Source: an uncultured Thermococci archaeon (GTDB taxonomy: Archaea > Methanobacteriota_B > Thermococci > Methanofastidiosales > B48-G16). From it: a stretch of 64,000 nucleotides of DNA. Each line of letters opens with the position of its first letter. Within the stretch, counting starts at the first letter, position 1. The stretch covers positions 32,001 through 96,000 of the forward strand of contig CAZQQT010000003.1 in assembly GCA_964595645.1 (NCBI GenBank). The letters are read 5' to 3'. The notes beneath the pieces are model-generated. The model was not told the DNA's origin. It saw only the letters and a program-made list of their open reading frames with translations, and did no database searches. A program made the position numbers and the translations under genes. Positions 1 to 29,100 of the stretch are shown piece after piece.

Positions 1-98
1 ATATGAGCGCCGTTTATATTCAACACAGAGAAATCTTTTTCCTCTCGTAAGCTCAGCCGTATTTTTCCTTCTTCAAATTTTAGTGTCTTTCTACGCAT
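1..98 (-). CDS. N-terminal fragment of a gene running off the window (MRRKTLKFEEGKIRLSLREEKDFSVLNINGAH...), function unknown; possibly an RRE/radical SAM enzyme
   Basis: ATG (98-96) overlaps the TGA (100-98) of the upstream gene; open frame to position 1. Not in the ORF track. Confidence 0.7.
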   Translation of the reverse strand, partial: MRRKTLKFEEGKIRLSLREEKDFSVLNINGAH

Positions 99-1684
99 CA
101 GAATCCACCTCCTCCTGCACAGGCACACGCGCAGGATACACAGGCACACGCGCAGGCACAGGATGCACATGCACAGACACAGGCTTTCTCGGAGTGTCCC
201 ACTTCCTTTCCCGCGATGATTCCTGCGAATGTCTTCTCACTGAGGCCCGGGTTTTTCTCAACACTTTGTTTCCCTTTGTTGAACTCCTCTGCAAACTTCT
301 CTCCAGAGTACTCCCCCTTCGGAAGATGGTACCAGAGCCACCACGACGTGGGCGTGAAAGCGGTATCAACATCTTTAAATGTTGTTCTTGCCCGGCCGTC
401 AAACTTCTCATCGATCATCAGCCATCCAGCCTTCTTGCCGAAGAGTCTATATTTCTCCTCAGGAGATATAGTTTTGAGTTCTCCCCAGTACGCTTCAATC
501 TCGTCTGTATAGTATTTTTCTGTATCTTTTCTACAGTATCCCTTCATTTTTCTATTCACTGCATTATTCAGGCCCTTCAGGACCAGTTTCATACCTTTTT
601 CATCGAATGTCCCATCCTTCTTCATCCCTTTGAGGAGGAACTGATTTTCGTAGTAGAAGGTTTTTCCTTCGAAGGTAACCTCACAACCGCAGTACTCACA
701 GAACTCTCTTTCAGATTCTCCTGTCATAGGTGCACCGCAGTTTGGACAGTGATATGCTTTCTCTTCCTCTCGTGACGGGAGTATCTCAACTTTTACAGGG
801 CTCCATTCCTGTATTCTTATTTTTCCTTTTTTCACCAATCCGTAGAGAAGAATGTTAATTATTTTAAAGGGATGCGCACCCAAAAGTACAGCAGCTTCAA
901 TATTATCAAGATCCTTCCTTACACCAAGTGATTCCATATGCATTTTTGGGTCTATATACTCTTTCGCCTTTTTTGCTGCTTTGTAGATACCATAACCTAT
1001 GAATATAACAACTACTAGAATAATTGCTACACCTATGAGTATTGAAGACGTATCCGGACCGGGTTTTTCCTCCGTCACATTTGTTACGTACCCTTCCGGG
1101 AATGAGATTCCGCATCTAAATTTTTCTCCTTCTCCAAGTGTTCTTTCCCAGTAGGCAAATGCCCAGCCGTTCTCTTCATCGAAGGTGTCTGCAGGTGCCG
1201 GCTCACATCCAAGCTCGTTCAGCGTTACACCCTCGGGTGCAATTAGTTTTACCCGCAGTACTTTTACCTCTTGATAGTCCCACCAGGCAGGATAAAATTC
1301 TACCCCCACCCTCCCTTCCTCATCTTTGTATACCATTTTTGGAACAATAAGATGGATTTTCATTCGTGTGACATCGCCCGTCTCGGCAACACGGGGGAAG
1401 TAGATCTTCAATCTCGTCCCTTGTTTCTCCACATCCAGCATTCTTCCATCGGATGTGACTGTGTAATCAATAATTTCTTCCTTTGGAATTCCAAAATAGA
1501 TCCCTTGCTGAGGTCCTTCTGTCGTTTTTATCGTTAGAAAGTACCATATGTCTAGAGAAGAGTCTTTTTGTACTGTAACTTCTACATTTTCCTCTTCTAT
1601 AAGAAATTCTGGTCCATCAGCAGAAAATGCACCAAGAAACAAAAAAAATGTCAGGATAAGAACAAGTCCATAGCATTGTTTCAT
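98..1684 (-). CDS. Membrane protein (DUF2207-like extracellular N-domain, TM helix, Zn ribbon) with C-terminal Cys/Ala-repeat tail
   Basis: Signal peptide after MKQCYG (ATG 1684, preceded by GGAGA); TM helix SILIGVAIILVVVIFIGYGIY; CPNC..CEYC; ends CVCACASCACACACVSCACACAGGGGF. Confidence 0.85.
   Translation of the reverse strand: MKQCYGLVLILTFFLFLGAFSADGPEFLIEEENVEVTVQKDSSLDIWYFLTIKTTEGPQQGIYFGIPKEEIIDYTVTSDGRMLDVEKQGTRLKIYFPRVAETGDVTRMKIHLIVPKMVYKDEEGRVGVEFYPAWWDYQEVKVLRVKLIAPEGVTLNELGCEPAPADTFDEENGWAFAYWERTLGEGEKFRCGISFPEGYVTNVTEEKPGPDTSSILIGVAIILVVVIFIGYGIYKAAKKAKEYIDPKMHMESLGVRKDLDNIEAAVLLGAHPFKIINILLYGLVKKGKIRIQEWSPVKVEILPSREEEKAYHCPNCGAPMTGESEREFCEYCGCEVTFEGKTFYYENQFLLKGMKKDGTFDEKGMKLVLKGLNNAVNRKMKGYCRKDTEKYYTDEIEAYWGELKTISPEEKYRLFGKKAGWLMIDEKFDGRARTTFKDVDTAFTPTSWWLWYHLPKGEYSGEKFAEEFNKGKQSVEKNPGLSEKTFAGIIAGKEVGHSEKACVCACASCACACACVSCACACAGGGGF
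119..156. repeat. Coding tandem repeat (ACAGGCACACGCGCAGG x2, 21-nt period) in the Cys-rich tail
   Basis: Copies at 119-135 and 140-156. Confidence 0.85.
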
Positions 1685-2161: not shown

Positions 2162-2272
2162 TGAATGAATCCAATGCTGACGTATGGATGATGAGACTTA
2201 TGAGCGCTGATCCTTCTTTTTCTTTTTTTAATAAAACCAAGGTTTTTATACACAGTGGGACAATACAACTCA

Positions 2273-3154
2273 ATGGAATCCGATACTCTCGCTCCCGAAA
2301 TCAAAAGGAAGCTTCTTACCGCCCAGAAAAATGAGATCACAGAGTATCATATCTATAAAAAGCTGTCAAAATCTACGAAAGATCCCCACAATAGAGACGT
2401 GCTCTCCCGTATTGGTGACGAGGAACTGGAACATTATCATTTCTGGAAAGAGTATACTCACGAGGAAATCACACCCAACCGATTAAAAACATGGCTATAC
2501 TACCTCATTGCACGGATATTTGGAATAACATTCAGCGTAAAGTTAATGGAAAAAGGAGAAGAGGATGCACAAATCACGTACGAAAAGATCGCGGAGACGA
2601 TTCCTGAGGCCAGTAAAATCGTTGAAGATGAGGATGAACACGAGGAGGAACTTATTGCACTAATCGATGAAGAACGTCTCAGATACGTTGGTTCTATCGT
2701 ACTTGGATTGAACGATGCCTTAGTTGAACTAACCGGTGCCCTCGCAGGATTCACCCTTGCACTTCAGAACACCGAGCTTATTGCAATCACAGGACTCATT
2801 ACTGGCATCGCTGCGTCACTTTCTATGGGGACTTCGGAGTATCTTTCTACAAAATCGGAGGAAAGCGAACAGAGTCCCGTAAAGGCGTCTATTTACACAG
2901 GTAGTGCATATATCCTTACAGTCTTTTTCTTGATTTTTCCCTTTCTACTTTTTGCAAATCTCTATCTCTGTCTTGGCGTGACAATTTTTAATGCAATTGT
3001 GGTGATTTTTATATTCACATTCTACATCTCCGTCGCCAAAGACGCTCCTTTTAAAAAACGATTTTCCGAGATGGCGTCGATGAGTCTCGGTATTGCGGCT
3101 ATCACGTTTGTGATAGGCTTTGCTATACGGCAGTTTTTGGGCGTAAGTGTGTGA
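2273..3154 (+). CDS. VIT1/CCC1 family transporter with N-terminal rubrerythrin/ferritin-like domain
   Basis: ExxH motifs (EELEH, EDEHE); VLGLNDAL and AASLSMGTSEYLS VIT1 motifs; several TM helices. Confidence 0.9.
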   Translation: MESDTLAPEIKRKLLTAQKNEITEYHIYKKLSKSTKDPHNRDVLSRIGDEELEHYHFWKEYTHEEITPNRLKTWLYYLIARIFGITFSVKLMEKGEEDAQITYEKIAETIPEASKIVEDEDEHEEELIALIDEERLRYVGSIVLGLNDALVELTGALAGFTLALQNTELIAITGLITGIAASLSMGTSEYLSTKSEESEQSPVKASIYTGSAYILTVFFLIFPFLLFANLYLCLGVTIFNAIVVIFIFTFYISVAKDAPFKKRFSEMASMSLGIAAITFVIGFAIRQFLGVSV

Positions 3155-5996: not shown

Positions 5997-7454
5997 ATGG
6001 ACATAAAACTGATATTGTTTGGGGTCTACTGCATTGGAATATTGTTAGTGGGCTATCTAGGATACCTAAAAACAAAAACGTTGGGCGATTTCTATCTTGC
6101 AGGGCGGAAAATAAACAAATGGATCGGTGCCGGTACCTTTGCAGCTACTTTTGTAAGTGCAATTACCTTCGTATCGTGGATTGGCTTCGGCTGGCAATTT
6201 GGTACTGCATTAGTGCCAGTGTATATCTTTGGATGCTTGGTCGGGTTTTTCCTTTATGCTATCGTTGCTCCAAAGATAAATATCATTGCACATAGAAATG
6301 AGACGTATACACCATCGGATTATTATGAGGGACGGTTTGATAGCAGTTTTCTTAAGCTATGGGCCACTACGTTTACTATAGTAGGCTTTTGTGTCTATCT
6401 CGTAATACAGTTGATAGGAACTGGTGTACTCTTTGAAGTAATTGTAGGAATACCATTTGCTCAAGCTCTGATCATTCTTGGAATTGTGTATACTATTTAT
6501 ACACTGCTTGGCGGGATGAAATCTGTTGCGTGGACAGATACAATACAATTTTCAGTATTTGTACTCGCAACAATAATTGCTTTCATCTACGTACTGCCAG
6601 AAGTAGGTGGATTTAGTGGACTGACGACAACCATAAAATCGATTAATCCAAGCTTGTTGACACTGACATCTGGAGGCACGTTTAGCCCCTTGTGGATTTT
6701 TGGAATAGCATTTGCAGTTGCAGTAGTTATACCTCTCCACTACGGTTATTTCTCGCGGGCAATGGCAGCCAAAAGTCCTCGTGAAGCTCGTGCAATGGTC
6801 GGTATCGGTTCGACGGGATTATTGATATTTTACCTTGCTATAGCCGTATTGGCCCTTGCCGCAAGAGCCTATATTCCTGATACAAGCGCTATTGCAACAG
6901 ATGAAGCATTCCCTACAATGGTATTGGAACACTTTCCGACGTTACTAGCTGCGTTTATCCTCGCATCGTTAGGTGCTGCAGTGATGTCTACCACAGATTC
7001 GATTCTGTTACAGGTCGGTGCAAATGTTTCGAACGATATTTACGCCAAATTTATAAATCCCGATGCATCAGACAAGAAGACACTTATGGTAGCCCGAGTA
7101 CTCGTTATTGTATTTGCCATAATAACGATTCTTCTAGGGCTTACAAAGCCAGCTGTGCTATGGGAGATCTATAACTTCTTTATCGTATTCCTCGTAGCAC
7201 CGTACTTTGCAATCTTTTTCTTGGGACTGTACTGGAAAAAAGCTACAAAGGCTGGAGCGATTGTCGGTGCCGTATCCGGTGGAGTAATTGGATGTGCAAT
7301 CAATGGATGGCAAGTACTTGGAGGAGTACCAGAAGTTCTTTCGTACCATCCAACACTGTATGCCGTTCCAATCTCAGTGGTACTGATGATAATCGTCTCT
7401 TATATGACGAAGCCACTACCAAAAGAAGTTGTCGAAAAATGGTACAAAATTTAA
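5997..7454 (+). CDS. Sodium:solute symporter (PutP/PanF family)
   Basis: DFYLAGR, GGMKSVAWTD, AAVMSTTDS motifs; about 13 TM helices. Confidence 0.95.
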   Translation: MDIKLILFGVYCIGILLVGYLGYLKTKTLGDFYLAGRKINKWIGAGTFAATFVSAITFVSWIGFGWQFGTALVPVYIFGCLVGFFLYAIVAPKINIIAHRNETYTPSDYYEGRFDSSFLKLWATTFTIVGFCVYLVIQLIGTGVLFEVIVGIPFAQALIILGIVYTIYTLLGGMKSVAWTDTIQFSVFVLATIIAFIYVLPEVGGFSGLTTTIKSINPSLLTLTSGGTFSPLWIFGIAFAVAVVIPLHYGYFSRAMAAKSPREARAMVGIGSTGLLIFYLAIAVLALAARAYIPDTSAIATDEAFPTMVLEHFPTLLAAFILASLGAAVMSTTDSILLQVGANVSNDIYAKFINPDASDKKTLMVARVLVIVFAIITILLGLTKPAVLWEIYNFFIVFLVAPYFAIFFLGLYWKKATKAGAIVGAVSGGVIGCAINGWQVLGGVPEVLSYHPTLYAVPISVVLMIIVSYMTKPLPKEVVEKWYKI

Positions 7455-7509
7455 AAAATCTCCTTTTTTTTTATTTGTCATTTTTTTTGGTCCACAAAGT
7501 CGTGATATT

Positions 7510-8181
7510 ATGGGTATAAAGGATAAAATAAAGTGTGGTGTTACAGGGTGCCCAAACGAGGTGATAGGTGAGTGCGATTATTGTGGCATACCTTTGTGCG
7601 AAGATCATGCTCAAAAATTAGAGACGAATAAGAGTACGGAGCTTTATTGCGCCGGATGTTTTCTTTATGTTTCAGTTTCTGGATTAAAAGAGAGAGATCT
7701 AGATCGTAGACTCATCCCAAATGTGTTATTCGTAAATAGTAGGAAATGCACAGGATGCAGAACCTGTGAACTTGTATGTTCGTTTGAGCATTTTGGAGTG
7801 TTTAGTTATGACAAGTCTGCTGTAGAATTAAAAAAGGATGAAGAATACGGCAAAACTGAAATTGTGCTATGCAGACACTGTGATGATCCAAAATGCGTTG
7901 AAATTTGTCCTACTGATGCGTTAAAAAAAGACAAAAATACTGGACTTGTTTCATTGAATAGAGAAAAATGTATTCAGTGTATGCGTTGCGTAGAAGAATG
8001 TCCTTATGATGCCATCTTTAGTTCCAAAGACAAAAAAATAATTAAATGTGATTTGTGCGGAGGAGATCCGATGTGTGCAAAATATTGTCCTGCAGAGGCT
8101 ATAGAATGGGTGAAAAAACATAAAATTGGAGAAAGAAAGAAACTTACTTATTTTATTTATCCAGAAGAGGAGGAAAGATGA
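7510..8181 (+). CDS. 4Fe-4S (DmsB/HycB-like) electron-transfer subunit with extra N-terminal Cys/His Zn-finger
   Basis: CTGCRTC, CRHC..PKC..CP, CIQCMRC..CP, KCDLC motifs; N-terminal C-x4-C..CxxC..CxxH..CxxC. Confidence 0.9.
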   Translation: MGIKDKIKCGVTGCPNEVIGECDYCGIPLCEDHAQKLETNKSTELYCAGCFLYVSVSGLKERDLDRRLIPNVLFVNSRKCTGCRTCELVCSFEHFGVFSYDKSAVELKKDEEYGKTEIVLCRHCDDPKCVEICPTDALKKDKNTGLVSLNREKCIQCMRCVEECPYDAIFSSKDKKIIKCDLCGGDPMCAKYCPAEAIEWVKKHKIGERKKLTYFIYPEEEER

Positions 8182-8182
8182 T

Positions 8183-10063
8183 ATGTCACTTAATAAAAAA
8201 ATCATAAAAGTGGATCTCACAAAGAAAAAAATAAACAAAGAGAGACTACCAAAGAAATTTTTCGAAAATTATCTTGGTGGAAGAGGGATGGGTGCAAAAA
8301 TTCTTTTCGAGGGAGTCAGTGAGACTACAGAACCTCTTTCTCCAGAAAATATAGTGATTGTGTCTACCGGGACGCTGGCAGGTACATTTGCTCCAGCATC
8401 AGCTAGACTCACGATCACATCTAAATCTCCCGAAACGGGTATCTACTGCAAAAGTAGCGTAGGTGGTCATTTTTCTCCAGAATTAAAATTTGCAGGGTAT
8501 GATGGCATTGTGATTTCTGGAGCTTCTGAAAATCCTGTTTATCTTAATATAAGAGATGATCTGGTTGAGATAAAAGATGCAACACATCTGTGGGGCAAGG
8601 ATGTACGCAAAACGAATGCTATACTGAAAAGAGAACTTGAAGATAAAAAAATCAATGTGCTCTCAATTGGTCCTGCAGGCGAAAATCTTGTGAAATATTC
8701 CTCGATCGTAAGTAATATATATAGACAAGCTGCAAGAGGGGGAATGGGCACTATTTGGGGATTTAAAAAACTTAAAGCTATAGCAGTAAGGGGTACAACA
8801 CCTTTGAAAGTTGCAAATCCCTCTCAATTCAAAAAAATAGCGTTGAAAGCAAGGAGGTCAGTGAAAAATGATCAGGATAGATTCTATCGCTATTTTTATT
8901 TTGGAGCAAACAGGGGACTTGTAGGGGCAAACGAGGTGGGATTTAACCCAACTAAAAATTTCCAGACTACTTACATGAAAAATGCTTATCCTACAGGAGG
9001 GGAATATATCCGCGAAAAATATATAGTACGAGAGAATGGATGTGGGTCGTGCGTTCTCTGTTGCGGACAGTCTTATGAAATTGATGATGGCCCCTTTGTC
9101 GGCACACATTCTGAAGGTCCAGAATGGGAAGCAGGAAGTTCATTCGGCGCGAGGATTTTCAATAACGATCCAGAAGTAGTCCTAAAAGCTAATGAGATAT
9201 GCAATATTAATGGTCTTGACCTCTCTTCAGCAATGAGTGTGATAGCGTTTGCAATGGAATGCTACGAGAACGAATTGTTGACTAAAAAGGATACAGAGGG
9301 ATTTTCCTTAGAATGGGGTAATACGGACACTGTACTAGAGCTCTTAAGAAAAATAGCGGAGAGAGAAGGTTTTGGAGATTTTCTCGCAGATTCAATTAAA
9401 GAAGTTTCAGGAAAGATAGGCAAAGAATCAGAAAAATATGCAATCCAAATCAAAGGACTGGGGCTTACAAGTGTTGATTTAAGATCAACTGTCCCATACG
9501 CTCTTGCCTTTGCGGTCAATCCTCGAGGAGGAGATCACTTACACACAGAAATAATTTGCCAGTTTGGTGGAACACCAGAGCATGAAGAAATCGCAAATAG
9601 AATAAGTGAAAGCTCCAAAGGAGCAGATCGTTTCTCCTTTAAAGGAAAGGCAAAAATGGTGAAGTATCACGAAGAAATTTGTTGCGCTTCAGATTGTTTA
9701 GGCATCTGTTTCATGCACACTCTTTCTTCACATAGAGTAAGTCCTGAACTTCTCTCAGGCATGTTTGAGAGTGCTACAGGTATTCCAATGAGCACAGGAA
9801 AGCTTCATAGAGCATGTGAAAGGATAGTGAATATAGAGAGGATGTTCAATGTGCGAGAAGGTTTGGGGAAGAAGGACGATACATTACCAAGGCGATTTTT
9901 CGATGAATCAGTGCCAAATGGGCCAGCAGAAGGATACAGAATACCTAAAAATAAATTTGATGAACTGCTTCAACAATATTACAGGATACATAGGTGGAAT
10001 TCTAGTGGAGTCCCCAAAGAAGAGACGTTAAAGAAACTCGAACTCGAAGAGTTAGTAAAGTAA
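8183..10063 (+). CDS. aor: Tungsten aldehyde:ferredoxin oxidoreductase family protein
   Basis: YLGGRG, KSPETG, LKFAGYD, IGPAGE, RGGMG..KKLKAI, CxxCxxxC, RGGDH. Confidence 0.93.
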   Translation: MSLNKKIIKVDLTKKKINKERLPKKFFENYLGGRGMGAKILFEGVSETTEPLSPENIVIVSTGTLAGTFAPASARLTITSKSPETGIYCKSSVGGHFSPELKFAGYDGIVISGASENPVYLNIRDDLVEIKDATHLWGKDVRKTNAILKRELEDKKINVLSIGPAGENLVKYSSIVSNIYRQAARGGMGTIWGFKKLKAIAVRGTTPLKVANPSQFKKIALKARRSVKNDQDRFYRYFYFGANRGLVGANEVGFNPTKNFQTTYMKNAYPTGGEYIREKYIVRENGCGSCVLCCGQSYEIDDGPFVGTHSEGPEWEAGSSFGARIFNNDPEVVLKANEICNINGLDLSSAMSVIAFAMECYENELLTKKDTEGFSLEWGNTDTVLELLRKIAEREGFGDFLADSIKEVSGKIGKESEKYAIQIKGLGLTSVDLRSTVPYALAFAVNPRGGDHLHTEIICQFGGTPEHEEIANRISESSKGADRFSFKGKAKMVKYHEEICCASDCLGICFMHTLSSHRVSPELLSGMFESATGIPMSTGKLHRACERIVNIERMFNVREGLGKKDDTLPRRFFDESVPNGPAEGYRIPKNKFDELLQQYYRIHRWNSSGVPKEETLKKLELEELVK

Positions 10064-10067
10064 AAAG

Positions 10068-10787
10068 GTGATCAATATGAGAATAAAAATTGTATTGCCG
10101 GTACCACATAATATGTGGAATGATCAAATACTTGCGAGCTGCAAGGAGGCTGCAAGTCAAAAGGCTGAAATTGAATTAGTGAACACTCAACATGGGGCAG
10201 AAACGTTAGAAGGATTTTATCACGCTAGTTTTGCTGAAAGAGACACGATTAATGAGATAATACAGGCTGAAAAAGACGGGTACGATGTTGTAGTGGTATG
10301 GTGCACTGCTAATGTAGGGGTAGAAGCAGCAAGGGAAGTAGTAAAAATACCTGTTGTTGGTATTATGGAGGCTGCACACTTATTGGCGATGTTACTCGGA
10401 CGAAGATTCTCAGAACTAGTTTCAGTAAAAAATGTAGTGGTGAGGCATGAAAGGAACGCAGAAATTCTCGGTTCCAATTCGAAACTTGCTTCTGTAAGAG
10501 AAATTGCGCTGCCAGTTAAAAAATTCCATGAAAATTTGGATTTAACTTATAAAAAGATGTTTGAAGCGGGAAAAAAAGCGATCGATGAGGACAATGCAGA
10601 TGTACTTGTACTTGGCTGTGGCGCAATGCTCGGAATAACTGATAAATTGAGTAAGGAGCTCGGCGTTCCAGTTATTGAACCTGGCAGTGCAGGCGTACAA
10701 ATGGCCGAAATGCTTGTGCATTTACATAAAGCTCACAGTAAAAAAGCGTATCCACTCCCCCTTGATGATATAAAGGTGATTAAATGA
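10068..10787 (+). CDS. Hydantoin racemase / Asp-Glu racemase family protein
   Basis: Two catalytic-type Cys (WCTAN, LGCGAM); IPVVGI.EAA; GVPVIEP. Confidence 0.85.
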   Translation: MINMRIKIVLPVPHNMWNDQILASCKEAASQKAEIELVNTQHGAETLEGFYHASFAERDTINEIIQAEKDGYDVVVVWCTANVGVEAAREVVKIPVVGIMEAAHLLAMLLGRRFSELVSVKNVVVRHERNAEILGSNSKLASVREIALPVKKFHENLDLTYKKMFEAGKKAIDEDNADVLVLGCGAMLGITDKLSKELGVPVIEPGSAGVQMAEMLVHLHKAHSKKAYPLPLDDIKVIK

Positions 10788-11779
10788 CAATACTAAAATA
10801 TGCAAAACTTGGAAGTTATGTAGTAAAAAAGTTGGCGAATATAGCTCCTAATGAAACTGTATTACTTTTAGGAGATACAGGAAGTAACAAATCAATGATG
10901 GATGCCATAATGTCTGCATCTATAGGGTTAGGTGTGGAAGTACAAATGCTCATGTATCCTGAGAGAAACACCACCAATGTCGAACCGTCAAGAGCAATTG
11001 CCGAAGCAATGAAAAATTCGGATGTCATAATTGATCTCTCAGTAAACTATTTTATTCATACCCAAGCGTATGATGATGCTCGCACAGCGGGTGCTCGGGC
11101 ACTTGTTACGATACCGCCAGGAATAGAAGAGTATATAAATGCAGGAGTTGTGGGGATAAATTATGAAAAAATGGTTAAAGAAGGCCAGATAATTGCCGAT
11201 CTATTTGAAAAGTCTAAAAAATGTAAAGTAATATCAGAAGAAGGAACTCATTTAGAAATGAACCTTGGTGAGAGACCTGCAGTGCTGAGAGATGGAATGG
11301 TGGTGAGCAGTGGTGAGATAGATTACTTCCCCGGAGCCCAAGTTTCACTGGCCCCTCTAGAGGATTCAATGAATGGTAAAATTGTCGCGAACGGGTCGAT
11401 ATATCCTCCGATCGGAAAACTTAGCGGAAACGTAGAAATTCAAGTAGAGGAGGGTACTATAGTTGAAATAAGTGGTTCTACAGATGCACAGGAATGGAAA
11501 AAATGGTTAAAGAGTCTAGAAGATAGAGAAATGTACAATATTGCACATTTTAGCATTGGATTCAACCCTAATGCAAATTTGAGAGGATATATCATCGAAG
11601 ATGAGAGAATTAGAGGCTCTGTGACTTGCGGATTTGGTTCTCAGATGATTGATTTCAAAGGAAAGTACGGAAAGGCAAAATCACATACAGATGTTGTTTC
11701 ACTCTTTAACACTGTTTTTTTGGATGATAAAAAGATTGTTGAAAATGGCAACATTCTTGTAGATGATAAAGATGAATAA
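10784..11779 (+). CDS. M29 aminopeptidase-like / NicX-like metalloenzyme
   Basis: GTHL, PGAQV..AP, AHFSIGFNP, EDER, SHTD. Confidence 0.7.
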   Translation: MTILKYAKLGSYVVKKLANIAPNETVLLLGDTGSNKSMMDAIMSASIGLGVEVQMLMYPERNTTNVEPSRAIAEAMKNSDVIIDLSVNYFIHTQAYDDARTAGARALVTIPPGIEEYINAGVVGINYEKMVKEGQIIADLFEKSKKCKVISEEGTHLEMNLGERPAVLRDGMVVSSGEIDYFPGAQVSLAPLEDSMNGKIVANGSIYPPIGKLSGNVEIQVEEGTIVEISGSTDAQEWKKWLKSLEDREMYNIAHFSIGFNPNANLRGYIIEDERIRGSVTCGFGSQMIDFKGKYGKAKSHTDVVSLFNTVFLDDKKIVENGNILVDDKDE

Positions 11780-12965
11780 GATACGATTGATCGAGAAGGA
11801 GGTAAATAGAAATAAAAATAGAATTATTGGATTAATACAAAAATTAGTAAAAATTCCAAGCTTTTCAGGAGACAAAAAAGGACTATCAGAAATAGCCCAG
11901 ATACTTTCTGACGAGATGAATAAGATTGGTCTTTCTGTGGAATTTATTGAAGCAGAAAAAGGATTACCTAATGTCGTGGGAAGGTTCAATAGCACTGATA
12001 GTAGCAGTCCATGGATTTTATTCAATGGCCATACAGATGTTGTGCCTGTTCAGAACGAAGAGAAATGGATCGTAGATCCATTCAAAGCCGAGATAAAGGA
12101 TGGAAAGATGTACGGTAGAGGCGCATGTGATATGAAGGGAGGGCTTGGAGCGATGGTAGCTGCTTCAAGAATAGTTTTGGATCTTTTCCCTGAATACAAT
12201 GGTAATTTTGTACTTACCGGCACGGTAGATGAAGAAATTGGAGGGGCCATAGGTATGCAATATATCCTGAAGAAAGGAGTGAGGGCAAATATGGGCATTG
12301 TGTGCGAACCGTCAGACCTCATGATTACCAATGTGTGTAAGGGACTTGTGTGGACGAAACTTAAGACTATTGGAAAGAGTGCCCATGGTAGCATGCCTGA
12401 AAATGGTATCAACGCTGTATATAAGATGTCGAAAATTCTTCATGTGTTAGAAGGATATACTTTCGATCGCCCACCTCATGAGATGCTGGGAAGTCCTACT
12501 ATAAATGTTGGAACGGTAAGGGGAGGATCAAAGCCCAACTTAATCCCTGATTTATGCGAAGTAGAGCTCGATATAAGATACTTACCTGATCAGACATATA
12601 AAGAAGTCATGAATGATTTAGAACGTATAATCAACGAACTGAAGGAGGAAGATCCAGAAATAAAGACTGAAATGGATATGATCCGTTATCGTTCCTCTGT
12701 AGAAGTACAAAAACATGAAAAAATAATACAAACTATCGTAGATGCAACAAAAAAGGTTAAAGACGCCCATCCTGGCTTCAAGGGCATGCCTTCACCAGGA
12801 GACAGTGAACATTTAGTTAAAGCTGGCATCCCTAGTGTAATGTTTGGTCCAGGCTCTGAAGATCTATGTCATGTAGACAATGAGTGGATTGCGGTTAATG
12901 AAATTTTGACCGCAGTAAAAATTTATGCAGCAATTATGTTGGAAGGTGAGAAAAATGGAAAATAA
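11772..12965 (+). CDS. M20 (ArgE/DapE-like) metallo-deacylase/peptidase
   Basis: NGHTDVV, GRGACDMKGG, DEE, CEP, GKSAHGS.P..G.NA, FGPG...H. Confidence 0.92.
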   Translation: MNKIRLIEKEVNRNKNRIIGLIQKLVKIPSFSGDKKGLSEIAQILSDEMNKIGLSVEFIEAEKGLPNVVGRFNSTDSSSPWILFNGHTDVVPVQNEEKWIVDPFKAEIKDGKMYGRGACDMKGGLGAMVAASRIVLDLFPEYNGNFVLTGTVDEEIGGAIGMQYILKKGVRANMGIVCEPSDLMITNVCKGLVWTKLKTIGKSAHGSMPENGINAVYKMSKILHVLEGYTFDRPPHEMLGSPTINVGTVRGGSKPNLIPDLCEVELDIRYLPDQTYKEVMNDLERIINELKEEDPEIKTEMDMIRYRSSVEVQKHEKIIQTIVDATKKVKDAHPGFKGMPSPGDSEHLVKAGIPSVMFGPGSEDLCHVDNEWIAVNEILTAVKIYAAIMLEGEKNGK

Positions 12966-13956
12966 TATAGATGTTGGTCAAGAAATACTCTATTTGACTC
13001 TAGAAGATATAGAAAGAATACAACTAAATGAAGAAAAAGTGTTTGAGATAGTGGAAGGTGCTTTGGCTGAACACGGAAGAAAAAACTGTGAAATGCCTGC
13101 AAAAATAGGATTACATCCATTGAAGGACACTCTTATGCACGCTATGCCTGCTTTCATTCCTAAATTTAAGGCGTGCGGAATAAAATGGGCGTCATGTTTT
13201 CCAGAGAACCATAAATATAATCTTGCCCAAACATCAGGATTACTTGTTCTCAATGATCAAAACACGGGCTGGCCTATCGCTGTGATGGACGCTATCTGGA
13301 TTACTGCTAAAAGAACTGCTGCTGTTACAAGAGTTGCATGCAAATACCTGGCAAGAGAAGATTCTGAGCAGCTTGGCATTATAGGTACTGGTGTTCAAGG
13401 AAACGAACATATAAAAGTGCTACCCAAAGTATTACCAAATCTTAGGACAATAAAAGCATACGATATGCGTGCCGATGCGAGAGAAGAGTTTGTGAAAAAA
13501 TACAATAACGAACTAGATTGCAATGTTGAAATAGCATCTAATTATAAAGAAGCTGTTGCAGATTCTGATGTAATAGTTTCTGCTACTGCCATTCTTCAGA
13601 AACCTGATCCGCAAATTAAAGATAAATGGATCAAGGAGAGAGGCGTGTTTATTGCCCCTGTTGATTTTGATTCGTTATGGGAGTTCGCTACCATGTCACG
13701 AATGGACAAATTCCTTGTAGACTCGATTGATGAAATGAATTATTTTGAAAGCATTGGCTATTTACCTCATGGACTTCCTCCCTCTCTCCATGGAGAAATA
13801 GGAGAGGTGGTTGCAGGATTAAAACCAGGTCGAGAAACAGATGAAGAGAACATTATGGACATGAACATAGGTATGGCAGTAGAAGACATGCCTGTGGCAA
13901 AAGAACTTTATAGACAAGCATTAAAAAATGGAATAGGCAAAAAACTTCCTCTTTAG
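12955..13956 (+). CDS. Ornithine cyclodeaminase / mu-crystallin (imine reductase, alanine dehydrogenase-like) family
   Basis: HAMPA, GIKW, ITAKRTAA, GIIGTGVQG, GMAVED. Confidence 0.9.
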   Translation: MENNIDVGQEILYLTLEDIERIQLNEEKVFEIVEGALAEHGRKNCEMPAKIGLHPLKDTLMHAMPAFIPKFKACGIKWASCFPENHKYNLAQTSGLLVLNDQNTGWPIAVMDAIWITAKRTAAVTRVACKYLAREDSEQLGIIGTGVQGNEHIKVLPKVLPNLRTIKAYDMRADAREEFVKKYNNELDCNVEIASNYKEAVADSDVIVSATAILQKPDPQIKDKWIKERGVFIAPVDFDSLWEFATMSRMDKFLVDSIDEMNYFESIGYLPHGLPPSLHGEIGEVVAGLKPGRETDEENIMDMNIGMAVEDMPVAKELYRQALKNGIGKKLPL

Positions 13957-14013
13957 ATTTTCTTATAAAGAGCTAAAAGTTTAAATGATAAAGAATAGCA
14001 TTGTGCAGATAAA

Positions 14014-14200
14014 ATGTATTTTAAACGAGAGATGATAAAGGTATTTGTATGCAAAACTAACGAAACGTAAGAAGACACTGTGATAATCGCCTGCCTACGT
14101 GAAACATTCTATGAGAGATATCCTATATATATCCAAGACTAAAAATTGTAGCCATACGCATCATTGATCCTATCATAGCTACTGTTATAATGATGCAGAT
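14014..14200 (+). pseudogene. Possible decayed remnant of a second hydantoin-racemase-like gene
   Basis: Reads EDTVIIACL, then after stops and a frameshift AIRIIDPIIATV, resembling the racemase C-terminal ADVLVLGC...VPVIDP motifs. Confidence 0.3.
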
Positions 14201-14232
14201 TCATCGTACATACAATATAGAGGGGATTTATT

Positions 14233-15150
14233 ATGTTAAAACAAGTTATGGAGATACATAAATTGTTGGATAATATTCAGGTTAGTGGAGAAAAAGTAGC
14301 GACATTTCTTAAACACAGAGGAGCAGACGAAATAGAAATAAAAAAAGTAGAAGGGAAAGAGAAATCGACAGATTTTATCAAAATCCAGCTCTACGGGAAG
14401 AATAAAGATGCCCCAACACTCGGAATTATTGGACGACTCGGCGGTATCGGTGCACAACCACATAGAAAGGGGTTTGTATCAGATGCAGATGGGGCTATTA
14501 CCGCACTCGCCTGTGCGCTCAAATTAGCTGAGGTGAAGCAGGACGGAAACTTACTAAATGGCGATGTGGTTATTGCAACACATATCTGCCCAAATGCGCC
14601 GATTATTCCCCACGAACCTGTGCCATTTATGGGATCACCGGTGACAATGGAGGAAATGAACAGACACGAGGTCAATGAGCAAATGGATGCAATACTTTCC
14701 ATTGATACAACAAAGGGAAACAGGCTGCTCAATTACCGTGGATTTGCGATTACACCCACTGTGAAGGAAGGATATATCCTCAGAGTGAGCGAGGATCTTC
14801 TGAACATCATGGAATGGACCACAGGGAAACAACCACGGGTTTTTCCGATCACCACCCAAGACATCACACCCTACGGGAATGAAGTATTCCATGTAAACAG
14901 TATCCTTCAGCCTTCCACTGCAACAACAGCACCTGTCGTAGGTGTGGCGATTACTACCGAGACAGCGGTACCGGGATGTGCAACAGGAGCAACTCATGAG
15001 ACAGATATAGAAGAGGCAGCTCGGTACTGTATTGAGGTGGCGAAAGCTTTTACTGAAAGAACGTGCAGGTTCTATGACAAAAAAGAGTTTGCCAGGCTTG
15101 TGAGCATTTATGGGGAGATGCGTGCTCTCCAGACCCTCAGTGGCAAATAG
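14233..15150 (+). CDS. DUF1177 family protein
   Basis: GIIGRLGGIGA, SDADGA, THICP, PHEPVPFM, SIDTTKGNR, VPGCATGA. Confidence 0.85.
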   Translation: MLKQVMEIHKLLDNIQVSGEKVATFLKHRGADEIEIKKVEGKEKSTDFIKIQLYGKNKDAPTLGIIGRLGGIGAQPHRKGFVSDADGAITALACALKLAEVKQDGNLLNGDVVIATHICPNAPIIPHEPVPFMGSPVTMEEMNRHEVNEQMDAILSIDTTKGNRLLNYRGFAITPTVKEGYILRVSEDLLNIMEWTTGKQPRVFPITTQDITPYGNEVFHVNSILQPSTATTAPVVGVAITTETAVPGCATGATHETDIEEAARYCIEVAKAFTERTCRFYDKKEFARLVSIYGEMRALQTLSGK

Positions 15151-15192
15151 ACCTAAAGCCTTTTATATGTAGAGTTTCCAGAGAGAAACGAT

Positions 15193-15912
15193 ATGCGTCT
15201 TATATTTTTCGATCTCGATAGGGTCCTGACACCCGCGTCTCACGTGCTCCTGATAGCCGAAAGAATCGGACAAAAGGAGAAGTTTGAAAAACTTTTTAAA
15301 GGAAGTGTGGAAGGCAAAACAGGATTAGAATGGATAGTAAAGCAGGGTATCACGTTTCTTGAGGGGCATGACCCTTCACTTTTTGAAGAAATCGCAAAAA
15401 ACATGAAGATTATAGAAAATGGGGTAGAAGTAGTAACGACCTTAAAGGAAAATGGGTATCACCCTATTATTATTACCAATGGATTTTACCGCGTTGCCCA
15501 AATTTTTGGTGAACGAATAGGGGTTAAGGAGGTGTATGGTAATAGAGCAGAGAAAAGAGATGGCGTCTTCACAGGGAAGATTTACTCCGATCTCCTCACT
15601 CTAAAATCGAAGGGTGACGTGGTGAGAAGGATCATCAAGAAGAAAAATCCAAGTATCTCCGTTTCCGTTGGCGATGATGAGAACGATTGGTTTATGTTCG
15701 AAGAAACAGACTTTTCTATTCTTTTTAATCCAACACCTTCGATTCTCCAGAAAGTACGATCCCTCAAAGAGAAGAAGGGAATGAGAGAGCTCACCAAATT
15801 CATCAACCTCATTGTTGCCAGGGATGATCTCAGTCTTATTCTTCCCTTTCTTGTCCCTGAGCCCGATCTTTTCCCAAAGTCAGTTACTGCAGAGCGAAAA
15901 ATTATCAGATGA
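15193..15912 (+). CDS. HAD-IB family phosphatase (SerB-like)
   Basis: FFDLDRVLT, ITNG, K, VGDDEND motifs. Confidence 0.8.
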   Translation: MRLIFFDLDRVLTPASHVLLIAERIGQKEKFEKLFKGSVEGKTGLEWIVKQGITFLEGHDPSLFEEIAKNMKIIENGVEVVTTLKENGYHPIIITNGFYRVAQIFGERIGVKEVYGNRAEKRDGVFTGKIYSDLLTLKSKGDVVRRIIKKKNPSISVSVGDDENDWFMFEETDFSILFNPTPSILQKVRSLKEKKGMRELTKFINLIVARDDLSLILPFLVPEPDLFPKSVTAERKIIR

Positions 15913-24412: not shown

Positions 24413-25489
24413 TCACCATTGTATCTCAAATTCAAAGTCATTTATCTCTACATCCCAACTTTCAGTACTCCCTTCGAATATAAACTTTGCATGTCCCTTT
24501 TCCATATCCAATGCACTAAAAATAACTACACCAGAAGCCTCAGTTCCAGATTTTATTTTTAAAGGGATTGTAGGATAATCTATATAAAGACTCCAATCGC
24601 TAAATTTTGTCTCAAATTGTCTATTTCCCTGTATAGCTACAGCATAAATATCGTAGAATGTTATTTCTTCGTTTCTCTCATTTTTTATTGTGAGATAAAC
24701 TCTTGTCTCGTCTTCTGCCAGTTCAACATAGTCTAAAGTCATTACGTATCCTTTATGATCCAGTGTTTCTCCTACGTTTACTCTCTCCATGGTTGGGGTC
24801 AGGAACTGTTTGGGATCGATTTTTGTAACGCTGTCTGCCGAAATGATCAAATCCCCCATTATATCCTTGCCTTCTATTGTACCTTCAACTCTCACAATTT
24901 CATCGTTTTTCGGTGTATATTCTCCCTCTGTATATACTGTAACACTTAGCCATGTATCATCTTTATCCGGATGGAAATAAAACCCGTACTTACCTTCTTC
25001 ACTCGTTTCTATACCTACTATGCCCATTAAATTGACTTTTGCCCCTTTATACTTTTCAGGGTTTTTAACTGCGGTGTTTCTTAAATTTTCATTTGTAATC
25101 AATTCGATAGGGGGAGATGGTGCAGCCGTTGTCGTTGGAGCAACTGTCGTTGTTGGTGCTGCTGTCGTTGTTGGTGCTGCTGTCGTTGTAGGTTCAGGTG
25201 TGGTGGTAGGAGCCTCTGTCTCTGCTGGTGTTGTCGTTGTTGTGGTACCATTTTCTTCGGTGGGAATACTCAAACACGTGCCAACAACAATTACAAGAGC
25301 AAACAATGTGATTAAAGCCCCTTTCTTCGTTTTGAAGAGGCTACTTAATATTTTTTTGATCGTGGATGTTTTTTGGTTACTTTCAGTCCTTTCTGTCTTC
25401 TCCTTAAAGTTGTATCCACAGTTTTCACAGTACAATGCATTCTCTTCATTTTCTGATCCGCATTGCGGACAAAACTTCTTCTCTCCCAT
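24413..25489 (-). CDS. Zn-ribbon / TM / Thr-rich / OB-like / DUF4352-like surface protein
   Basis: CPQCG..CENCG, TM helix, (PTTTAA)n, IKSGTEASGVVIF. Confidence 0.75.
   Translation of the reverse strand: MGEKKFCPQCGSENEENALYCENCGYNFKEKTERTESNQKTSTIKKILSSLFKTKKGALITLFALVIVVGTCLSIPTEENGTTTTTTPAETEAPTTTPEPTTTAAPTTTAAPTTTVAPTTTAAPSPPIELITNENLRNTAVKNPEKYKGAKVNLMGIVGIETSEEGKYGFYFHPDKDDTWLSVTVYTEGEYTPKNDEIVRVEGTIEGKDIMGDLIISADSVTKIDPKQFLTPTMERVNVGETLDHKGYVMTLDYVELAEDETRVYLTIKNERNEEITFYDIYAVAIQGNRQFETKFSDWSLYIDYPTIPLKIKSGTEASGVVIFSALDMEKGHAKFIFEGSTESWDVEINDFEFEIQW
25120..25215 (-). repeat. 18-bp coding tandem repeats (PTTTAA)
   Basis: Repeated tgtcgttgttggtgc-like units. Confidence 0.8.
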
Positions 25490-26159: not shown

Positions 26160-29100
26160 TTAGTAGTTATTTACTGTCTTTTCAATTGGTAGTACTACCT
26201 CGTTAGATTTAATTTTTTGAATCTGCTCCCTGATGTCATTGTCTTCTTTAATACTATTGAAAATTTCTTTTATCACAGCTAATTTTTCGTCTTCAGATTT
26301 TAAGTTTTCAATGCCTTTTAGATAGGGCTTAACCAATTCCATAAGAGTTGTTTCGAGTTTTTCTTCGAAGTAAAGCTCATAAATGAGAGAATCGATGATT
26401 TGCTCATCGATAAAACGAATGAGCTTTTCCTCTGAGCTTCGACGTTTTTCTGTTTCATTGAGAAAGAGCATATAGGTACAGAGGGTAATAAAAGGCTGTT
26501 GATTTTGGAGGGAGATTTTTTTAACTGGAAGTCTCTTGAAGTCATTAGGATAAAAGTAATACTCTATTCTATGCCTCCTAATTGTATTGAGATAAAACTT
26601 GGCGAATTTTGAGTTTAACACAGTTAGAATGTATTTGAGGTCAAAATTGGATGATATTTTCTCCAATTCATCTCTTGGCTTGTCAGTCCATTTCGTGATA
26701 CTCATAGTGATACTTCGGTTCGAAACAGACTTGAGACTTTCGTATCTCACCATCACATTGATACTATGGTTACATATTATTCCACTCTCATCATAGGTTC
26801 CATCTACCGTAGCTCCACGAATTATTTTGGGGTAGATATACAATTCAGGAAAAGTTGGCCTCCTAATTTTGGTAGGGCATCGTTCAGTATCCCATTCCAA
26901 GTATTTGGTTTTATTAATTGTGTACCTATCAATATATTTGGCCTCTACATAAGGCTTACTATTAATTCTTGTTTCAGTATCAGAAATTAGGTCGTCCTTT
27001 TTAAATTCGCCCTTAGCTTTTTTTTCATGAGCATTTAAAACCATACCAACACTTATAAAGCAGATATTTCCCAATAGCTCTGTATTTTTAAATGCGTCTT
27101 CAAAATCCATCGTGGGAGCTATTCTAAAAATCTTATTTATATCCTCAGATGGCTCAAGCTCTTCAATATTTCCAAAAGAATTAACATGCAAAATCCGCTC
27201 TGTCTTCTCTTCCTTTTCTTTATTTTCTACGATAAGTATAACATTTTCGACGCCCACTCCTCTGAAAATTTCAATATTTTCAAAAAAATCAACTTTTTTT
27301 AAATGATAATTTCCCAAAATAAATTTTTTACTCTTTTTAGCGAATTTTGAGGTATTAAATGACTTTGAAATTATGTATGAGAAAACTCCTCCCTCTGAGA
27401 TCGATTTTAGGCTTCTTTCAATGAAGGCAATGAAAAGATCCCATTTTTCATAAAACGTTTGGTATTCTCCTGTGTCCTCTAACACTTCTCTTAGTCTCTG
27501 ATATGTTTCGTCTTCGTTATCTGCCCGTACGTAGGGTGGATTTCCAATGATGATATCGAATCCTCTACCCTCTTGCGATTTTTTCGGATCGAAAACTTCA
27601 TAAAATTCAAATCCCCAGTGAAAAGGACTGAACTCATCAAATTCTTCTTGCGGAATCTTTATATCCTTAGATCTTAACGCTCTATAAAACTCTAAATCGA
27701 GTAATTCTCTTAATTTTTTGTCTATTTTTTCTATTCTTTTTCTCAAAGGTTTAAGTTCGCTATATTTTGCTTTTTTATACGTATGAACAAGGTTTTCTCT
27801 TTCTTCCAATAATTCATACAGTGAATTTTCCTTGGTCCAGTACTCTAAATTTGAGTGATCTCTATCTTGGAACTTACTGATATCCTTATACCCGACCAGA
27901 GTGTTCCCGCGTCTGAGATTATATTCTATATTTGGCAATGGCTTGATATCTTCTGGTTTATATGAATCTACAAGCCACAGTCATAACCGTAATTTTGTTA
28001 TTTCAATAGCATTAGGATTTATGTCTACGCCATACAAATTCTCTAAAAGAATTATTTTTTTAATAACAGAATCGGGATTTTTTATGTTCAGTTTATTAGA
28101 TATTTTTTTGATTAAATCGAATAATATATGAGCCGCTGCCAGTAAAAAGGCTCCAGAACCACAGGCATTATCACAAACGTTCAGTTTTAGTATGATTTTC
28201 TTCAAAATTTCATTTAAAGTTGTTTCATGAAGTATAAAGATTTCGTCAATGTTCTCAATCAACTCTGTCTCTTTATACTCCTTTTCTTCCTTCAAAAAAG
28301 TGTTTATCCTACCTATTAGACAAGAATAAATAGCATTTTCTGCAATATATCTTGTTATATACTTTGGCGTATAATAAGCACCCGTACCTTTCCTATCGGA
28401 AGCGGTCATCGCCCTTTCGAATATATAGCCCAATATCTCCGGATCTATTGAATCTCCATTGCCAAGAGACTCTTTATGTACAAACTTGAAACTATCCAAA
28501 AAATTGACCAGTTCTCTTAAAATTTCAGCCTTGATTCTGTAATTTGGATTTTTTTTCTCTACGTTCGTCTTGAGAAATAAACTCCCATTTAAGTATGGTA
28601 TGTCCTCGAAATTAGAGTCTATATCTACTCTTTCACTTTCTGGAGTATTCAAAACTCTAAAAAATAGTTGTTTTAATCGATCGTTCATGATATCTTGGTC
28701 TTGCTCAGCCAAATAGGCCAAAATATCTTTTTCGATAATCCCTTTCGATTGGAGAAATTTTATAAAGATCAATCGATCGACAATCACCTGAGCAACTTGC
28801 TCTCTACTTCCCAAATCCTCGATATTGAGGATATTCTGTATCAAACAGTCTTCTTCAGAGATCCGTTGTGTTTTATTCTCTCTATCTTTGTATCTCCCCC
28901 CATGCAACAAAGCGTTATACCATGCGTAAAATCTCTTTGTGATTTCCTCCTCTGTCTTATCAGAGATTACTCTTTCTTTTCCACGTAAAAAATCTTCAAT
29001 TTTTTCATGATCCTCTTTTAAATCAAGTTTTGCTGTTTCCTCACCATTTTTATCTATAAATATCCACGTCAATCCATCTGTAGCTATCCCAAACTCATAG

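Follow-up and report, generated by a model that had tools for sequence, protein, structure and literature searches.

In this study, we have analyzed a 64,000-nucleotide window of archaeal DNA (G000:C3:32001-96000) and conclude that a radical SAM enzyme, P0002, probably modifies covalently the Cys-Ala tail of P0001, the membrane protein encoded beside it, while that tail remains tethered; no chemistry has been shown, and there are no biochemical or expression data. We favor this reading because of the architecture of the enzyme, the linkage of the two genes, the conservation of the tail, and the lack of a recurrent small precursor, protease, or exporter, and because there are precedents for the modification of whole proteins (QhpD/QhpC and CrpC/CrpA). 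That the modification consists specifically of Cys-to-Ala/Gly thioethers is a more tentative inference.

The P0001 gene (positions 98 to 1684, minus strand) encodes a 528-amino-acid protein, and translation and hydropathy bear out the signal peptide, single transmembrane helix, and cysteine-rich, glycine-capped C-terminal tail given in a preliminary description of this DNA. The start at 1684 has a GAGGAG site closely 5' of it and agrees with the start positions of homologues; the longer, 568-amino-acid form proposed by the ORF caller is unsupported. On the same strand follow the regions that encode the signal peptide (residues 1 to 22, positions 1619 to 1684; identified by hydropathy and modeled as a helix at residues 2 to 17), an extracellular beta-sandwich that folds as do ribophorin I and the N-terminal domain of aminopeptidase N (residues 27 to 196, positions 1097 to 1606), the transmembrane helix, with basic residues on its C-terminal side (residues 215 to 233, positions 986 to 1042; hydropathy), a conserved juxtamembrane helical/wing domain that aligns with canonical DUF2207 (residues 243 to 301, positions 782 to 958), a zinc-ribbon insertion with two CxxC motifs (residues 313 to 332, positions 689 to 748), and the Cys-Ala tail (residues 502 to 528, positions 101 to 181). 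Among the P0001 relatives examined, the zinc-ribbon insertion is limited to Methanofastidiosales members; in most members of the family, a disordered low-complexity linker precedes the tail. The hydrophobic segments span residues 4 to 22 and 215 to 233, the second being followed by a Lys-rich stretch, and a weak third segment (residues 266 to 284) is, in the model, a helix within a soluble domain. In the family as a whole, Lys and Arg together average 4.0 after the transmembrane helix and 1.1 before it. Because the basic residues sit behind helix 215-233, the topology is established with the tail in the cytoplasm, where it had been placed earlier.

From C502 to C522, the tail carries 10 Cys within 21 residues, followed by AGGGGF. 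The alternation of Cys and Ala had been called near strict; the density of cysteines stands, but the alternation is interrupted by two-residue spacers that yield Cys blocks of 3+4+3, and the interruptions read as purposeful. No other real ORF of the 1.97-Mb genome has a comparable tail. A microsatellite or frameshift artefact is ruled out, as codons vary among relatives: the last eight residues have 35 distinct DNA encodings in 35 relatives, and selection therefore acts at the protein level. In a grammar compiled from 126 tails, the last three-Cys block, with its Ala spacers and Gly cap, was almost invariant, and the CxC spacer was Ala in 660 of 697 cases (95%), Val in 31, and another residue in 6. 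The joints between Cys blocks are two residues long, mostly AG or VS, and the commonest patterns are 4+3 (55 tails) and 3+4+3 (27 tails). The tail is the best-conserved part of a family that is otherwise about 25% identical; 114 of the best 150 profile matches were full-length proteins, and 112 of these kept the tail, a count favored by the profile itself, since the profile contains the tail. Some tails depart from the common form. The tail gene at L078:5001-6980 encodes about 90 further residues behind the tail, and a PspA gene (8612-9325) lies after the enzyme at that locus; in L028:3-2003, L029:1-2319, and L031:197-3106, a variant with 3+4 Cys blocks is followed by a class I methyltransferase, the tail gene being present in L029 as a tandem pair.

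The sequence of the tail does not decide between a metal ladder and nested sactionines. From geometry, we infer that a two-residue turn would face Cys to Cys, suiting the former, and that a wider loop would face Cys to Ala or Gly, suiting the latter. The tail had been proposed as either a RiPP-type substrate or a metal/Fe-S site, and the evidence favors the substrate without demonstrating its chemistry. A metal/Fe-S site nevertheless remains the main rival to covalent modification: the unmodified poly-thiolate tail would bind Cu, Zn, or an Fe-S or other cluster, with its two-residue spacers bringing cysteines opposite one another in a hairpin, and the enzyme would build or deliver the cluster or a small cofactor. 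Both CxC and CxxC, well-known metal-binding motifs, occur in the tail, although metal binding itself is inferred. The variable number of Cys blocks, the zinc ribbons around the system, the scores of P0002 against NirJ/Ahb cofactor enzymes, and the link between related TIGR04222 tails and copper-type MNIO clusters (PMC12452194) also speak for such a site. It is made unlikely, however, by the retention of a fused RRE even in a cysteine-less paralogue of the enzyme, by the absence of any metal transporter or chaperone that recurs in the loci, and by spacers held at Ala. This constancy of the Ala spacers exceeds what metal binding alone is known to require, in comparison with metallothioneins. Three features of the tail count against the preferred reading of covalent modification: its total number of Cys varies from 5 to 11, it has none of the known ranthionine acceptors (Asp, Glu, Asn, and Thr), and it lacks the StsA register CxCxCx4GxGxG.

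The stop codon of P0001 overlaps the ATG of the P0002 gene (TGATG, positions 96 to 100, minus strand), as had been noted, and the overlap is kept in L002 to L005. Only the first 32 codons of P0002 lie in the window (positions 1 to 98, minus strand); the gene extends past its edge (G000:C3:30845-32098). These visible residues had been taken for the start of an RRE belonging to a radical SAM/SPASM enzyme, and the full gene, in which the CxxxCxxC and SPASM motifs could be read, confirmed both suppositions. The 417-amino-acid protein comprises a PqqD/RRE domain (residues 25 to 77), a Radical_SAM domain (residues 121 to 269), and a SPASM domain (residues 340 to 399). The RRE matches PF05402 with 31.1 bits against a cutoff of 23.4, a profile search also hit the TfuB1 RRE, and the radical SAM core matches PF04055 with 85.8 bits. 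Across 17 aligned and 120 further homologues, the CxxxCxxC cysteines (C125, C129, and C132) and the SPASM cysteines for two auxiliary clusters (C340, C358, C395, C398, C406, and C410) are invariant; C416 is also present. In the structural model (pLDDT 84, pTM 0.86), the N terminus forms strands and then three helices, an RRE fold, and the best structural matches are SkfB, SuiB, CteB, and PqqE, with the sactisynthase SkfB at the top; SkfB is also the best match by sequence.

While the class of the enzyme is thus clear, its product is not fixed by homology. P0002 reaches no curated maturase cutoff, with StsB (83.5 of 625 bits), SkfB (71.6 of 300), AlbA, PapB, and ACGX all far below, and scores 44.6 bits against TIGR04463, the CrpC family, for which the cutoff is 525; its top NCBIfam scores include the small-molecule enzymes NirJ2, AhbC, and AhbD. 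We count both points against the preferred reading. Of the six active-site-proximal residues as defined previously (PMC10288494), those placed in P0002 by motif are Y133/T165/I190/T214/Q359/S360, with the third position varying across the family. The published sets are Y/T/I/S/K/L for StsB and F/F/T/S/H/Q for CteB (PMC10288494), and the P0002-SkfB alignment gives Y/T/F/S/Q/L for SkfB, so that P0002 is identical at three of six positions to StsB, at three of six to SkfB, and at none of six to CteB. P0002 is in this respect nearer to StsB and SkfB than to CteB or PqqE; this is only a weak sign, because Tyr and Thr are common at those places in the wider clade. There are two extra conserved cysteines, C92 and C326. 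The latter, in some loci a fourth invariant cysteine before the SPASM motif, could occupy the open AuxI site that thioether formers are thought to need (PMC13692751), and we count it against thioether formation. A cofold of P0002 with P0001 residues 340 to 528, clusters, and SAM scored 0.02 and gives no evidence either way. More than 3,400 enzyme clusters were found at an E value of ≤1e-60, some of them paralogues. A second radical SAM gene of the same genome (C11:73154-74608) was rejected as the cognate enzyme, having no tail neighbor and a far lower score.

Linkage of the two genes is established. The cognate enzyme was present in 28 of 34 loci selected by the tail, and the remaining 6 are all cut by contig ends: three end no more than 221 bases past the stop of the tail gene, and three begin no more than about 420 bases from the tail gene; the latter belong to a subgroup with a relative, L030, in which the enzyme lies upstream. 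Conversely, the tail gene lay directly upstream of the enzyme in all five loci selected by the enzyme, which are closely related archaeal loci, and two further tail variants adjoin an annotated enzyme. Among 133 genomes of the phylum, 13 had the tail gene and 12 of these had the cognate enzyme, adjacent every time, the thirteenth locus being cut by a contig end; the other 120, including the same-genus genome G005, had neither gene. Weak matches in the phylum, at E values of about 1e-4, proved to be unrelated zinc-ribbon proteins and were discarded. The preliminary description would have been refuted by an unrelated housekeeping neighbor and homologous tails without a conserved one; instead, the enzyme neighbor is conserved across archaea and bacteria. 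The trees of P0001-type and P0002-type proteins are congruent (Spearman coefficient of distances, 0.75), which shows joint inheritance only and not contact. A promoter scan performed at chance level, with a model unsuited to archaea.

The core of the system is two genes, or three in most lineages. The loci examined have no small precursor, protease, or exporter in common, and a short Cys-rich precursor with leader and core neither recurs in the loci nor occurs in the genome; the candidate core here is the tail of a 528-amino-acid protein. No conserved leader motif directly before the tail is shared across archaea and bacteria, a point against the preferred reading. Sequence and model show that P0001 lies in the membrane with the beta-sandwich on the outer side and the C-terminal half on the cytoplasmic side, and P0002, cotranslated with it, is inferred to grip the cytoplasmic part through its RRE. 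It may then take hydrogen from small residues of the tail and install covalent changes, for which nested thioethers of the sactionine type, from Cys to Ala or Gly, would be the likeliest form. The tail would remain part of P0001, forming a rigid C-terminal module that still bears some thiols and that would take the place of the simple Gly-rich tail seen in canonical DUF2207 proteins.

It can also be envisioned that the tail is modified and then cleaved, making the membrane protein an unusually large precursor from which a small RiPP is freed. The disordered linker before the tail would suit release, as would an M28 peptidase after the enzyme in L016 and HtpX in L077; however, no protease or exporter recurs, the ectodomain and cytoplasmic domain are conserved, and several members (P0050, P0066, and L033 to L035) have an extra domain C-terminal of the tail, all of which leaves this explanation improbable. 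Equally hard to credit is the proposal that the substrate of the enzyme is a small zinc-ribbon protein, a zinc ribbon, or a metabolite and that the tail is merely a redox or sulfur-carrying arm of the pathway. In 20 loci outside Methanofastidiosales, a small two-helix zinc-ribbon gene does lie directly upstream of the tail gene, and the methyltransferase of L028, L029, and L031 also speaks for this proposal, but we did not find the small gene in those Methanofastidiosales genomes that carry the system, and the tail and enzyme are never apart in judgeable loci.

With covalent modification of a tethered tail as the preferred reading, P0001/P0002 appears to work as a sactisynthase system would if its core were tethered; it belongs to no curated family. 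StsB, SkfB, and AlbA share its RRE-radical SAM-SPASM layout, with SkfB the best fold match and the proximity residues leaning weakly toward those of StsB and SkfB, and StsA has established CxCxC donors with Gly acceptors, comparable to the CxCxC donors and small acceptors proposed here; unlike P0001, however, their substrates are short, free precursors with a leader, and the acceptor register is other than that of the P0001 tail. To our knowledge, radical SAM thioethers on full-size proteins have been proven in only a few cases (QhpC and CrpA), none of them an integral membrane protein. The whole-protein thioethers of QhpC are made by the RRE-bearing radical SAM enzyme QhpD (PMC7876137), which likewise cross-links a protein that stays a protein. 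This quinohemoprotein amine dehydrogenase system differs in its Cys-Asp/Glu links, its small exported subunit with a leader, and its qhp operon, and none of its specific features (acceptors of the Cys-Asp/Glu type, leader, and qhp operon) occurs in the P0001/P0002 system. In Methanococcus voltae, CrpC has been shown experimentally to put thioethers in the Cys-rich C terminus of CrpA (PMC13692751). CrpC/CrpA (TIGR04463) is likewise an archaeal RRE-radical SAM-SPASM enzyme with a large neighboring protein and a Cys-rich C-terminal target; CrpA differs in that it starts with a leader and contains 17-residue repeats bearing C-x-x-Q/D, and its description contains no mention of a Cys-Ala motif or transmembrane substrates (PMC13692751).

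The membrane protein has a closer parallel in TIGR04222 proteins with Cys-bearing low-complexity tails, which have been proposed, by prediction only, as MNIO substrates (PMC12452194). In both systems, a membrane protein with an unstructured, Ser/Gly-rich, Cys-bearing C terminus is the proposed whole-protein substrate of a neighboring RiPP enzyme. The TIGR04222 proteins are served by an MNIO rather than an RRE-radical SAM-SPASM enzyme, have several helices and a predicted periplasmic tail rather than one helix and a cytoplasmic tail, carry diverse tails where that of the P0001 family is near invariant, and occur mostly in Actinomycetota, whereas the P0001/P0002 system is found in anaerobic archaea and Chloroflexota-type bacteria. 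P0001 itself matches nothing in Pfam or NCBIfam, including TIGR04222 and the DUF2207 models PF09972 and PF20990. The host is an archaeon of the Methanofastidiosia type, and close relatives are labeled as Candidatus Methanofastidiosia, Theionarchaea, and Thermococci MAGs. A profile of its family retrieved 929 clusters at 50% identity (E value, ≤0.001), and among 86 relatives, 11 matched TIGR04222 (best E value, 1.4e-7), and 2 and 4 gave weak matches to PF09972 and PF20990, respectively. HHalign of the family against canonical DUF2207, a shallow comparator, gave a probability of 13.6% with a weak alignment of the juxtamembrane domain, and ESM features also lead to DUF2207. The family has the DUF2207 layout (signal, beta-sandwich ectodomain, helix, and juxtamembrane domain) and a TIGR04222-type feature, the low-complexity Ser/Gly C terminus with Cys. 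As judged from sequence, it is a remote TIGR04222/DUF2207 relative and not a member by cutoff, because the matches are weak and confined to few relatives. Canonical (YciQ-like) DUF2207 proteins share this layout and a low-complexity tail, which ends Gly-Gly-Arg, as also in the P0001 family; they differ in their extra helices, Cys-free Gly/Phe tail, and LemA-like neighbor, and no LemA occurs in the genome studied here. Within the order Methanofastidiosales, family f2 has canonical DUF2207 (16 of 17 genomes), and families f1, f3, and f4 have the tailed form; the two never co-occur, a pattern that amounts to one or two events only. In L066 to L071, from family f2, which lacks the tailed system, canonical DUF2207 adjoins a LemA-like gene.

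We found no description of the Cys-Ala motif, of DUF2207 with radical SAM, or of Cys-Ala membrane RiPPs in the literature, most subscription journals being outside the scope of the search; the precedents cited above include neither this family, nor its tail, nor its enzyme clade. The system matters as a large family in archaea and bacteria with a short, near-invariant target. If the proposal is true, it gives a first clue to what the low-complexity tails of the DUF2207/TIGR04222 superfamily do; these seem to have recruited both MNIO and radical SAM enzymes, RiPP enzyme classes that are unrelated to each other. A bolder version, which we put forward only as a conjecture more doubtful than the modification itself, is that of an undescribed maturation system in which the RRE-radical SAM enzyme makes the Cys-Ala comb of a membrane protein into a new cross-linked or cluster-bearing module that relays ectodomain signals, for example, a two-way zipper of radical-made Cys-Ala thioethers. 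Such a system would be widespread in anaerobic archaea and bacteria, with a dedicated enzyme and a cytoplasmic tail end. The earlier suggestion of a sensing system gained no support from anything tested. The physiological role is the least certain part of our reading; the likeliest setting, envelope or membrane quality control, is weakly indicated by SPFH, HtpX, and PspA neighbors in some lineages.

Downstream of P0002 and outside the window, three tightly spaced genes (C3:28208-30836) encode a 155-amino-acid LIMLP_15305-like protein, an SPFH protein with a double zinc ribbon, and a zinc-ribbon protein; they were rejected as core, being conserved no further than the window's own family, apart from a partial set in the distant locus L077. 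The Psp system was also rejected, PspA being absent from the order and adjacent in one locus only. In Methanofastidiosales, a zinc ribbon is built into the membrane protein; other lineages instead encode a ribbon in a gene of its own. Fusion of that gene into P0001 is not shown, and the complementary distribution alone stands; with a ribbon-only profile, the P0001 insertion ranks no higher than other ribbons of the genome. An enzyme paralogue that lacks the CxxxCxxC and SPASM cysteines, with its RRE intact, lies near the active enzyme in seven loci (L012:8951-10174, L014, L016, L018, L023, L026, and L030). Two HEAT-repeat-like proteins with C-terminal zinc ribbons (G000:C3:26490-28216, equivalent to L001:10490-12216, outside the window) converge on the end of the operon.

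Elsewhere in the window, an iron-handling gene with a rubrerythrin-like N terminus and a VIT1 domain (positions 2255 to 3154, plus strand) lies two genes upstream on the opposite strand and was not seen in related loci. A codirectional block (positions 5997 to 15912, plus strand), named by eye from the sequence, resembles amino acid catabolism and includes a sodium symporter, an Fe-S subunit, and aldehyde:ferredoxin oxidoreductase-like, racemase-like, ArgE-like, and ornithine cyclodeaminase-like genes. On the minus strand, an Eco57I/TaqI-type restriction-modification methylase is encoded at positions 26160 to 27938, and a zinc-ribbon protein with a low-complexity repeat is encoded at positions 24413 to 25489, where the opposite strand yields a spurious Cys-rich frame.
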